Part shown: positions 35,843 through 40,621 of the stretch, piece by piece
Layout of the letters: the number at the start of each line of letters is the position of its first letter
How positions within the stretch are numbered: the stretch's first letter is position 1
NCBI RefSeq assembly: GCF_003334765.1
Contig: NZ_QOWT01000016.1
Strand: one strand, 5' to 3'
Length of the DNA: 64,000 bases
Source of the DNA: Escherichia coli
GTDB taxonomy: Bacteria > Pseudomonadota > Gammaproteobacteria > Enterobacterales > Enterobacteriaceae
Position numbers and translations under genes: made by a program
The notes under the pieces: generated by a model
The model's input: only the letters and a program-made list of their open reading frames with translations
The model's database searches: none
What the model was told of the DNA's origin: nothing

Positions 35843-37092
<1,250 letters not shown>

Positions 37093-37269
37093 TAAAGTAA
37101 GTAACTGGTTAATTTACATTCTGGTCGCGTGCGCAAATACGCTTTTCCTCACACAGTTGTCAAGTGTTACGTTTAGATAATTGCTATCCGGAAAAGCATC
37201 TGCTATTTATAGCGGCCTCATTTTTCCCCCGAACATGGGGATCGATAGTGCGTGTTAAGGAGAAGCAAC

Positions 37270-37725
37270 ATGCAAGAAGGGCAAAACCGTAAAACATCGT
37301 CCCTGAGTATTCTCGCCATCGCTGGGGTGGAACCATATCAGGAGAAGCCGGGCGAAGAGTATATGAATGAAGCCCAGCTGGCGCACTTCCGTCGTATTCT
37401 GGAAGCATGGCGTAATCAACTCAGGGATGAAGTCGATCGCACCGTTACACATATGCAGGATGAAGCAGCCAACTTCCCGGACCCGGTAGACCGTGCAGCC
37501 CAGGAAGAAGAGTTCAGCCTCGAACTGCGTAACCGCGATCGCGAGCGTAAGCTGATCAAAAAGATCGAGAAGACGCTGAAAAAAGTGGAAGACGAAGATT
37601 TCGGCTACTGCGAATCCTGCGGTGTTGAAATTGGTATTCGCCGTCTGGAAGCGCGCCCGACAGCCGATCTGTGCATCGACTGCAAAACGCTGGCTGAAAT
37701 TCGCGAAAAACAGATGGCTGGCTAA
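37270..37725 (+). CDS. dksA: RNA polymerase-binding transcription factor DksA
   Basis: ATG at 37270 ([19 protein letters not shown]...), 151 aa; C4 zinc finger CESCGVEI...CIDC. Confidence 0.95.
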
Positions 37726-37753
37726 TTACAGCCGTTCCATCACGTTTACCACA

Positions 37754-37782
37754 GGCGGGAAATGCTCCCGCCTTATTTTTTG
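37754..37782 (+). terminator. dksA rho-independent terminator (overlaps the longest gluQ start)
   Basis: ggcggga-aatgc-tcccgcc hairpin followed by ttattttttg; the ATG at 37762 sits in the loop. Confidence 0.75.
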
Positions 37783-38688
37783 TTCAAAGAGATGACAGAC
37801 ACACAGTATATTGGCCGCTTCGCCCCCTCTCCTTCCGGCGAGCTTCATTTTGGCTCTCTGATCGCCGCGCTCGGCAGCTATTTGCAGGCTCGCGCCCGGC
37901 AAGGTCGCTGGCTGGTACGCATAGAAGATATCGACCCGCCTCGTGAAGTTCCCGGTGCCGCAGAAACTATCCTGCGCCAGCTGGAACATTACGGTCTGCA
38001 CTGGGACGGCGATGTTCTCTGGCAATCGCAACGTCACGACGCCTATCGTGAAGCACTCGCCTGGTTACATGAACAAGGACTAAGTTATTACTGCACCTGT
38101 ACGCGTGCGCGTATTCAAAGCATTGGCGGTATTTACGACGGTCATTGCCGGGTGTTGCATCATGGACCAGACAACGCCGCAGTGCGTATCCGCCAGCAGC
38201 ATCCGGTCACGCAATTTACTGACCAGCTGCGCGGCATTATTCACGCCGACGAAAAACTGGCACGGGAAGATTTTATCATTCATCGCCGTGATGGGTTGTT
38301 CGCCTACAACCTGGCTGTTGTGGTTGATGATCATTTCCAGGGCGTTACAGAAATAGTGCGTGGGGCTGATCTGATTGAACCAACAGTAAGGCAAATCTCG
38401 CTGTACCAGCTTTTTGGCTGGAAAGTGCCAGATTACATTCATCTGCCGCTGGCGCTTAATCCACAAGGCGCTAAACTTTCCAAGCAGAATCATGCGCCTG
38501 CGTTGCCGAAAGGCGATCCACGCCCGGTACTAATCGCGGCACTTCAATTTCTGGGGCAGCAGGCAGAAGCACACTGGCAGGATTTCAGCGTCGAGCAAAT
38601 CCTTCAGTCAGCCGTCAAAAACTGGCGGCTTACCGCCGTGCCCGAGTCGGCAATTGTAAATTCAACATTCTCAAATGCGTCATGCTGA
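37762..38688 (+). CDS. gluQ: Glutamyl-Q tRNA(Asp) synthetase (GluRS catalytic-domain paralogue)
   Basis: Longest ORF starts at 37762 (308 aa); alternative in-frame ATG at 37792 ([22 protein letters not shown]...); class I aaRS catalytic region. Confidence 0.85.
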
Positions 38689-38747
38689 GCTATGATTAGC
38701 CGCTATTTTTTTGTCCTGAATGATGTTTGACACTACCGAGGTGTACT

Positions 38748-40145
38748 ATTTTTACCCGAGTCGCTAATTTTTGCCGCAAGGTGCTAAGCCGCGAGGAAAG
38801 CGAGGCTGAACAGGCAGTCGCCCGTCCACAGGTGACGGTGATCCCGCGTGAGCAGCATGCTATTTCCCGCAAAGATATCAGTGAAAATGCCCTGAAGGTA
38901 ATGTACAGGCTCAATAAAGCGGGATACGAAGCCTGGCTGGTTGGCGGCGGCGTGCGCGACCTGTTACTTGGCAAAAAGCCGAAAGATTTTGACGTAACCA
39001 CTAACGCCACGCCTGAGCAGGTGCGCAAACTGTTCCGTAACTGCCGCCTGGTGGGTCGCCGTTTCCGTCTGGCTCATGTAATGTTTGGCCCGGAGATTAT
39101 CGAAGTTGCGACCTTCCGTGGACACCACGAAGGTAACGTCAGCGACCGCACGACCTCCCAACGCGGGCAAAACGGCATGTTGCTGCGCGACAACATTTTC
39201 GGCTCCATCGAAGAAGACGCCCAGCGCCGCGATTTCACTATCAACAGCCTGTATTACAGCGTAGCGGATTTTACCGTCCGTGATTACGTTGGCGGCATGA
39301 AGGATCTGAAGGACGGCGTTATCCGTCTGATTGGTAACCCGGAAACGCGCTACCGTGAAGATCCGGTACGTATGCTGCGCGCGGTACGTTTTGCCGCCAA
39401 ATTGGGTATGCGCATCAGCCCGGAAACCGCAGAACCGATCCCTCGCCTCGCTACCCTGCTGAACGATATCCCACCGGCACGCCTGTTTGAAGAATCGCTT
39501 AAACTGCTACAAGCGGGCTACGGTTACGAAACCTATAAGCTGTTGTGTGAATATCATCTGTTCCAGCCGCTGTTCCCGACCATTACCCGCTACTTCACGG
39601 AAAATGGCGACAGCCCGATGGAGCGGATCATTGAACAGGTGCTGAAGAATACCGATACGCGTATCCATAACGATATGCGCGTGAACCCGGCGTTCCTGTT
39701 TGCCGCCATGTTCTGGTACCCACTGCTGGAGACGGCACAGAAGATCGCCCAGGAAAGCGGCCTGACCTATCACGACGCTTTCGCGCTGGCGATGAACGAC
39801 GTGCTGGACGAAGCCTGCCGTTCACTGGCAATCCCGAAACGTCTGACGACATTAACCCGCGATATCTGGCAGTTGCAGTTGCGTATGTCCCGTCGTCAGG
39901 GTAAACGCGCATGGAAACTGCTGGAGCATCCTAAGTTCCGTGCGGCTTATGACCTGTTGGCCTTGCGAGCTGAAGTTGAGCGTAACGCTGAACTGCAGCG
40001 TCTGGTGAAATGGTGGGGTGAGTTCCAGGTTTCCGCGCCACCAGACCAAAAAGGGATGCTCAACGAGCTGGATGAAGAACCGTCACCGCGTCGTCGTACT
40101 CGTCGTCCACGCAAACGCGCACCACGTCGTGAGGGTACCGCATGA
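38748..40145 (+). CDS. pcnB: Poly(A) polymerase I
   Basis: Reading frame open from 38727 (TTG); the established initiator is the non-canonical AUU, here ATT at 38748-38750 with gagg 8 nt upstream; nucleotidyltransferase motif [10 protein letters not shown]; stop overlaps folK start. Confidence 0.85.
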
Positions 40146-40621
40146 CAGTGGCGTATATTGCCATAGGCAGCAATCTGGCCTCTCCGCTGGAGCAGGTCAA
40201 TGCTGCCCTGAAAGCATTAGGCGATATCCCTGAAAGCCACATTCTTACCGTTTCTTCGTTTTACCGCACCCCACCGCTGGGGCCGCAAGATCAACCCGAT
40301 TACTTAAACGCAGCCGTGGCGCTGGAAACCTCTCTTGCACCTGAAGAGCTACTCAATCACACACAGCGTATTGAATTGCAGCAAGGTCGCGTCCGCAAAG
40401 CTGAACGCTGGGGACCACGCACGCTGGATCTCGACATCATGCTGTTTGGTAATGAAGTGATAAATACTGAACGCCTGACCGTTCCGCACTACGATATGAA
40501 GAATCGTGGATTTATGCTGTGGCCGCTGTTTGAAATCGCGCCGGAGTTGGTGTTTCCTGATGGGGAGATGTTGCGTCAAATCTTACATACAAGAGCATTT
40601 GACAAATTAAACAAATGGTAA
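40142..40621 (+). CDS. folK: 6-hydroxymethyl-7,8-dihydropterin pyrophosphokinase
   Basis: 159-aa ORF; ATGA overlap with pcnB stop. Confidence 0.93.

Follow-up and report, generated by a model that had tools for sequence, protein, structure and literature searches.

The locus considered here lies in a window of 64,000 nucleotides (the whole stretch of DNA that was analysed) from Escherichia coli assembly GCF_003334765.1, contig NZ_QOWT01000016.1. In the part of this window that surrounds the feature of interest, sfsA (36388-37092), dksA, the gluQ ORF and pcnB are all located on the plus strand. RefSeq annotation mapped onto the window places the coding sequence of dksA (151 aa) at 37271..37726, with a TAA stop codon at 37724-37726, and that of gluQ (gluQRS, formerly yadB) at 37792..38688. 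The latter gene codes for a glutamyl-Q tRNA(Asp) synthetase (GluQ-RS) of 298 aa, an assignment that is also backed by a PDB match.

A hairpin is found at 37753..37773 on the plus strand, 27 nt downstream of the dksA stop codon. Its stem comprises 8 bp, six of which are G-C pairs, and is formed by a 5' arm AGGCGGGA (37753-37760) and a 3' arm TCCCGCCT (37766-37773) that enclose the 5-nt loop AATGC (37761-37765). Directly 3' of the stem is the U-tract TATTTTTTGTT (37774..37784, plus strand), which was apparent on reading the sequence and in a terminator scan and which carries 7 T residues in 9 nt. The whole has the anatomy of an intrinsic terminator, namely a GC-rich stem-loop followed by the U-rich tail TATTTTTTGT. 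The terminator scan recovers the hairpin, and RNAfold includes it in both the MFE and the centroid structures; the identical hairpin has a folding energy of -14.5 kcal/mol.

Two ATG codons in the same frame follow dksA. The ATG at 37762..37764 occupies positions 2-4 of the hairpin loop and opens the longest gluQ ORF in the ORF list (37762..38688, 308 aa). The other (37792-37794) lies 30 nt beyond the first ATG and 18 nt beyond the stem. An initial annotation made from the sequence had described the hairpin, the T-run, both ATG codons and the 308-aa ORF, and all of these are confirmed by the sequence, the scan and RNAfold.

Local statistics alone make a weak case for the hairpin. The scan found five terminator-like sites compared with 2.5 +/- 1.5 in shuffled sequences, and the z-score for folding of a 105-nt stretch that contains the hairpin is -1.04. 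The significance of the structure comes decisively from its conservation and from Term-seq data. RNAfold also proposes a second, weak hairpin in which the U-tract (37774-37781) pairs with AAGAGAUG (37787-37794) and would cover the true AUG. We treated this structure as not significant because it contains only A-U and G-U pairs and because of the z-score of the whole stretch. A permissive Rfam scan of 36000-40500 (E-value up to 1) returned no known RNA family; a C/D snoRNA hit that scored 19 bits against a gathering score of 50 was dismissed as a chance match.

Over 37200-38750 (1551 bases) the window is 100% identical to E. coli K-12 derivatives, and of 5426 complete E. coli genomes 5425 contain this region. 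Within it, 37740-37800 is identical in 4457 of the 5425 genomes, and the remaining 968 (about 18%) differ from the window. Two genomes with a single mismatch were inspected, and they carry a C to T change at 37743, upstream of the hairpin, with the hairpin and both ATG codons unaltered.

Several observations were also made on the flanking genes. The terminator scan reports a weak hairpin in the sfsA-dksA spacer (37200-37225, CTGCTA-TTTA-TAGCGG followed by CCTCATTTTT), which is situated about at the dksA transcription start by the numbering of a 2012 study (PMC3542578). It coincides with a Term-seq 3' end at MG1655 160652(-), or window 37222, that is classed as 'orphan' in the tables examined (PMC7815308) and that is probably the end of sfsA transcripts or of transcripts from an upstream promoter. 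Downstream, an RNA-seq comparison pointed to an RNase III-dependent site in gluQ at MG1655 159578, with decay being faster in the wild type than in an rnc mutant. This candidate site, which was not confirmed by in vitro cleavage, corresponds to window ~38296, some 530 nt from the start of the long ORF, and has no connection with the hairpin. The RefSeq start of pcnB, a gene for which a non-canonical AUU start is known, is an ATT codon at window 38748-38750; the mechanical ORF list begins at a TTG at 38727.

Termination and read-through after dksA

Published Term-seq data for E. coli MG1655 place an RNA 3' end at 160097(-), with an average count of 3,097,035 that exceeds the count of every other 3' end in those portions of the study's tables that were examined (PMC7815308). 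In window coordinates this is 37777, a position of the T-run, and the 61 nt given as its context are identical to 37727-37787. In the same tables the end is scored at 1.16 for Rho ('No') and at 7.47 for intrinsic termination, for which the threshold is 3.0. They also list coverage of 250 upstream and 62 downstream (about 25%), or 250 and 72 with bicyclomycin; the ratio of 250 to 62 is drawn from 800-nt windows and mixes termination with differences in RNA stability. In these tables the terminator end carries the class 'internal' for gluQ, with a distance of 15 nt to the start codon, because the gene model that was used began at the loop ATG (MG1655 160112, which is window 37762). The position of the 3' end, just 4 nt past the stem, suggests trimming after termination. 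A weaker Term-seq 3' end inside dksA at MG1655 160387 (window 37487), for which the tables examined give a count of 29,202, is not Rho-dependent, scores 1.04 for intrinsic termination and is probably a processing or decay product.

Reporter data are available for the same locus of Shigella flexneri (PMC3542578). A lacZ fusion that carried the dksA coding region and the spacer and from which the dksA promoters had been removed gave baseline activity, and a fusion that retained the promoters and from which the spacer had been removed gave ten-fold the activity of the full construct. Mutations that disrupt the stem raised downstream reporter expression more than 2-fold, and an RT-PCR product was obtained that spans the spacer. 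Since the spacer has a 10-fold effect, of which stem mutation recovers just over 2-fold, a factor besides the hairpin may also lower downstream expression.

The hairpin is a Rho-independent terminator of dksA, as established by its anatomy, by the Term-seq 3' end at 37777 and by the Shigella stem mutagenesis. The 3' end is located in the U-tract in vivo and Rho independence is evident in the published Term-seq data, and the structure is kept in relatives. Together, the Shigella and Term-seq results indicate that termination is ~75-90% efficient and that read-through is the sole source of gluQ mRNA. The initial annotation had proposed both that the hairpin terminates dksA transcripts and that gluQ depends on read-through of it. 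The first proposal is upheld by the evidence just named, and the second by the baseline activity of the promoterless fusion, the RT-PCR product across the spacer, the ten-fold gain on removal of the spacer and the drop in coverage. Its remark that coupling of gluQ to dksA through a terminator had already been reported is also correct (Caballero et al. 2012, PMC3542578).

The gluQ initiation codon

The initial annotation had regarded the true start of gluQ as ambiguous, and on this point it does not stand. When Shigella flexneri DNA that reaches from the dksA stop codon through the end of gluQ-rs was expressed, Edman sequencing placed the N-terminus of the protein at the second methionine, giving 298 residues (Caballero et al. 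2012, PMC3542578). The sequence obtained is identical to the translation of the window after 37792. The sample came from T7-driven over-expression from a plasmid and only the predominant band was sequenced, such that a minor isoform of 308 aa is not strictly excluded by this experiment (PMC3542578). The same authors noted that Escherichia fergusonii lacks the first methionine (PMC3542578).

A second line of evidence is provided by an N-terminomics study of E. coli K-12 published in 2026, in which the peptide MTDTQYIGR is listed for b0144 as a 298-aa proteoform (PMC13245402, Table S1 row 32). The start inferred there, NC_000913 160082-160080, is equivalent to window 37792, and the product is described as a 10-aa N-terminal truncation of the 308-aa UniProt entry (PMC13245402). 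The part of this table that was searched holds no other gluQ row, and hence no peptide from the loop ATG; for gluQ it has no entries in the evidence columns for Ribo-seq and Ribo-RET (PMC13245402).

Annotation and structural data agree with these N-termini. The RefSeq start of gluQRS is the equivalent of window 37792 in all five records inspected. Over its entire length of 298 residues, the chain of PDB 1nzj_A/4a91 aligns with residues 11-308 of the long ORF, and no mismatches are visible (E = 1.6e-207). It is this 298-aa form, starting with MTDTQ, that was crystallised (PDB 1nzj, 4a91). For GluRS chains of 448-592 residues, the alignment is confined to their catalytic part. The product is identified as GluQ-RS by its identity to the characterised E. 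coli enzyme and by its architecture, a truncated GluRS catalytic domain that lacks the anticodon-binding domain.

Thus, the ATG at 37792..37794 (plus strand) is the initiation codon of gluQ, as demonstrated by Edman sequencing, N-terminomics, RefSeq, the crystallised chain and conservation across species, and the loop ATG is not a functional start. The experiments that the initial annotation had proposed as checks, Term-seq, N-terminal sequencing and mass spectrometry, had already been published, and they place the 3' end at 37777 and the start at 37792. Termination, Rho independence, the lack of a separate promoter and the N-terminus have therefore all been shown previously by experiment.

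The start codon that is used is poorly equipped with a Shine-Dalgarno (SD) sequence. Its anti-SD duplex is calculated at -1.7 kcal/mol, compared with -6.3 kcal/mol for the loop ATG and -9.2 kcal/mol for dksA, which has a strong ribosome-binding site. Among the matches listed, the second ATG is never accompanied by an SD sequence, and the anti-SD duplex at the gluQ start across 92 species has a median of +0.6 kcal/mol and a best value of -3.0. The loop ATG was likely chosen in older annotations because it gives the longest ORF and is preceded by the SD-like sequence GGCGGGA, and UniProt P27305 still gives 308 aa. Both this ATG and its SD-like sequence are located inside the stem-loop. Initiation at the loop ATG on the abundant terminated dksA transcripts would yield a non-stop message of 5 codons, and selection should therefore disfavour it.

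Conservation of the hairpin and of the start codon

The comparative set consisted of at least 120 genomic loci that encode the GluQ N-terminal motif, an exact pattern that biases the set towards Enterobacterales. Among the matches listed, dksA is located directly upstream in 107 of the loci analysed. A hairpin of at least 8 bp with at least six G-C pairs is present in 78 of the 94 unique short dksA-gluQ spacers listed, as opposed to 0.5% of shuffled spacers. The stem core GGCGGG, in the form (A)GGCGGGA(G), is common to 71 of the 81 listed unique spacers with a scored hairpin, and Erwinia and some Pantoea among these matches carry a hairpin of other sequence in the same place. The hairpin is a conserved structural element across Enterobacteriaceae.

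Other parts of the spacer are far more variable. No conservation between genera is seen from the dksA stop codon up to the hairpin. The loop varies freely, with 28 different loops (TCT, TTT, CTT and others) among the matches listed, and those of these matches with an in-frame loop ATG belong exclusively to E. coli, E. albertii and Escherichia sp. E1V33. In a divergent 'E. coli' isolate, AF16 (93% identity), the loop reads ATTAC and the loop ATG is missing; the stem, T-run and second ATG of this isolate are unaltered. An ATG located 15-24 nt before the glycine codon of GRFAP, the position of 37792, is found in 101 of the 107 dksA-adjacent loci listed, and for the 92 species among the matches the distance from the stem to the start codon downstream of it is mostly 11-24 nt. 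In 22 of the 92 listed relatives, any upstream start is precluded by an in-frame stop codon that separates the conserved ATG from the loop. From these sequence comparisons, the loop ATG looks like a chance, lineage-specific feature of Escherichia and Shigella.

The T-run is also variable. Despite a kept hairpin, 31 of the 92 listed relatives have only 1-4 T residues in the 9 nt after the stem. Because the hairpin is kept in many relatives with such a poor T-run, it may have another role, such as protecting the 3' end of dksA mRNA. Either terminator strength differs between genera or the hairpin also serves this protective role, one of which is probably the case.

What is new in the present study is comparative only: the hairpin and an SD-less start are family-wide in Enterobacteriaceae, and the loop ATG is an accident confined to Escherichia. 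The leaky dksA-gluQ terminator and initiation at the second ATG were already known.

Alternative readings and biological context

With these data in hand, we regard the following explanation as very probably correct as a whole: the dksA terminator is leaky, gluQ mRNA arises by read-through, translation starts at 37792 and the loop ATG is accidental. Most transcripts from the dksA promoters end at the hairpin and U-tract (37753-37784), with a 3' end at 37777. A minority, roughly 10-25%, read through and provide the only source of gluQ mRNA, given that gluQ has no promoter of its own. On this read-through RNA, ribosomes initiate at 37792, in an A/U-rich stretch without an SD sequence, to produce the 298-aa GluQ-RS; the U/A-rich composition of the spacer may itself support SD-independent initiation. 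The presumed purpose of combining a leaky terminator with weak initiation would be to hold the level of GluQ-RS well under that of DksA, with gluQ transcription still coupled to the dksA promoters.

Three other readings of the locus deserve consideration, and the one we judge least probable, to the point of being effectively refuted, is that gluQ has its own promoter just downstream of the hairpin and has no need of read-through. A sigma-70-like match (TTCAAA-18-TATATT, 37783-37812) that fits at 9 of 12 positions could be taken to suggest this. However, the -10 element of this match lies downstream of 37792, and so the resulting transcript could not encode GluQ-RS. Moreover, the scan found three promoter-like sites where 1.7 +/- 1.6 are expected by chance, and the Shigella fusion without the dksA promoters stayed at baseline (PMC3542578). 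We consequently rejected this candidate on the basis of its -10 position, the chance-level number of hits and the published fusions. An independent promoter with no read-through is the situation that the initial annotation had named as incompatible with its proposal, and it is contradicted by the published data. It is also highly improbable, although slightly less so, that translation from the loop ATG yields a minor 308-aa isoform of GluQ-RS when the hairpin is opened, as could happen through a ribosome or under conditions of read-through. No stop codon separates the in-frame loop ATG from gluQ, GGCGGGA precedes this ATG at a suitable spacing with the anti-SD duplex energy given above, and the hairpin with its AATGC loop appears fixed in E. 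coli proper, as judged from the 4457 of 5425 identical genomes and from a variant that differs outside the hairpin. Nevertheless, this ATG and its SD-like sequence are held in a hairpin of -14.5 kcal/mol, the N-termini found by Edman sequencing and N-terminomics match the second ATG only, and the crystallised form has 298 aa. Likewise, the loop ATG is missing from isolate AF16, from E. fergusonii (PMC3542578) and from all other genera among the matches listed, and the 10-residue extension that it would add is not conserved, being interrupted by a stop codon in the 22 of 92 listed relatives noted above.

A somewhat less remote proposal, which we still consider unlikely, is that read-through is not constitutively leaky but actively regulated, be it through growth phase, a bound factor, an anti-terminator or a riboswitch. 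In stationary phase, the spacer-spanning RT-PCR product of Shigella rises 20-fold and the dksA and gluQ-rs products rise 1.3-fold, and the authors of that study considered a regulatory circuit possible (PMC3542578). In some genera, furthermore, the 5' arm of the hairpin has its complement in the bases directly 3' of the dksA stop codon. Set against these points are the lack of any Rfam family in the scan of 36000-40500 (E-value up to 1), the authors' own failure to find a riboswitch (PMC3542578) and the absence of conservation between genera in the stretch from the stop codon to the hairpin. We searched for anti-terminators by calculating the duplex energy between this stretch and the 5' arm for the 79 unique spacers among the matches listed, with 200 shuffles as a reference. 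Complementarity in the spacers of E. coli and E. albertii is no better than in shuffled sequences (z about +0.4), and the median z-score for the 79 listed spacers is -0.28. This search for an anti-terminator is therefore negative for E. coli and gives no general signal. With neither an Rfam family nor a conserved competing pairing, the hairpin does not qualify as a riboswitch or attenuator.

The complementarity itself was observed in Citrobacter, Salmonella, Enterobacter cloacae, Lelliottia and Mangrovibacter, in which the bases after the dksA stop codon (TAATCCCG.., TAATCCCCGCC, TAACCCGCCCGC or CCCGCC) can pair with the 5' arm. Among the matches listed, it corresponds to duplexes of -10 to -14 kcal/mol with z-scores of -1.7 to -2.8 relative to shuffles, and it is absent in E. 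coli. At the same low probability, the post-stop sequence of these genera could be an anti-terminator that is covered by the ribosome at the dksA stop codon. If this were true, transcription of gluQ would respond to the translation load on dksA. E. coli would then be without the anti-terminator element, and regulation there, such as the 20-fold stationary-phase rise, would need a different factor.

Our preferred reading, a leaky terminator followed by initiation at 37792, has its closest counterpart in the dksA-gluQ-rs locus of Shigella flexneri (BMC Microbiol 12:226, PMC3542578), which is the same locus in a sister lineage. There, too, the first AUG is in the loop and the second is ~30 nt further on, no separate promoter and (by the authors' own remark) no obvious SD sequence are present, and the N-terminus is the same. 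The two loci show no difference of substance, with a hairpin energy of -14.7 kcal/mol in the paper compared with -14.5 here. As analogues, the 2012 authors named the terminator T1 upstream of dnaG in the rpsU-dnaG-rpoD operon and the recA-recX terminator (PMC3542578). In both, as in dksA-gluQ, an intrinsic terminator separates a strong upstream gene from a weak, promoterless downstream gene, and partial read-through sets their ratio; dnaG also has an unusual SD sequence. Their genes and sequences are different, and they are likened to dksA-gluQ by description. Among the analogues considered, only the dksA-gluQ terminator holds an in-frame loop ATG that misled annotation.

The dksA terminator shares a GC-rich stem, a U-tract, a 3' end in the U-tract and insensitivity to bicyclomycin with canonical intrinsic terminators of E. 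coli. Unlike these, which terminate near-completely, it is leaky, and instead of closing an operon it precedes a start codon by 18 nt.

Our findings have little significance beyond annotation hygiene, as an example of a start codon that is misplaced into the loop of a terminator when the longest ORF preceded by an SD-like sequence is preferred. Through this arrangement, an enzyme of tRNA modification that attaches glutamate to queuosine in tRNA-Asp is coupled to the promoters of DksA, a factor of the stringent response, at a far lower level of expression, and this link between GluQ-RS and the dksA promoters was already made in 2012.
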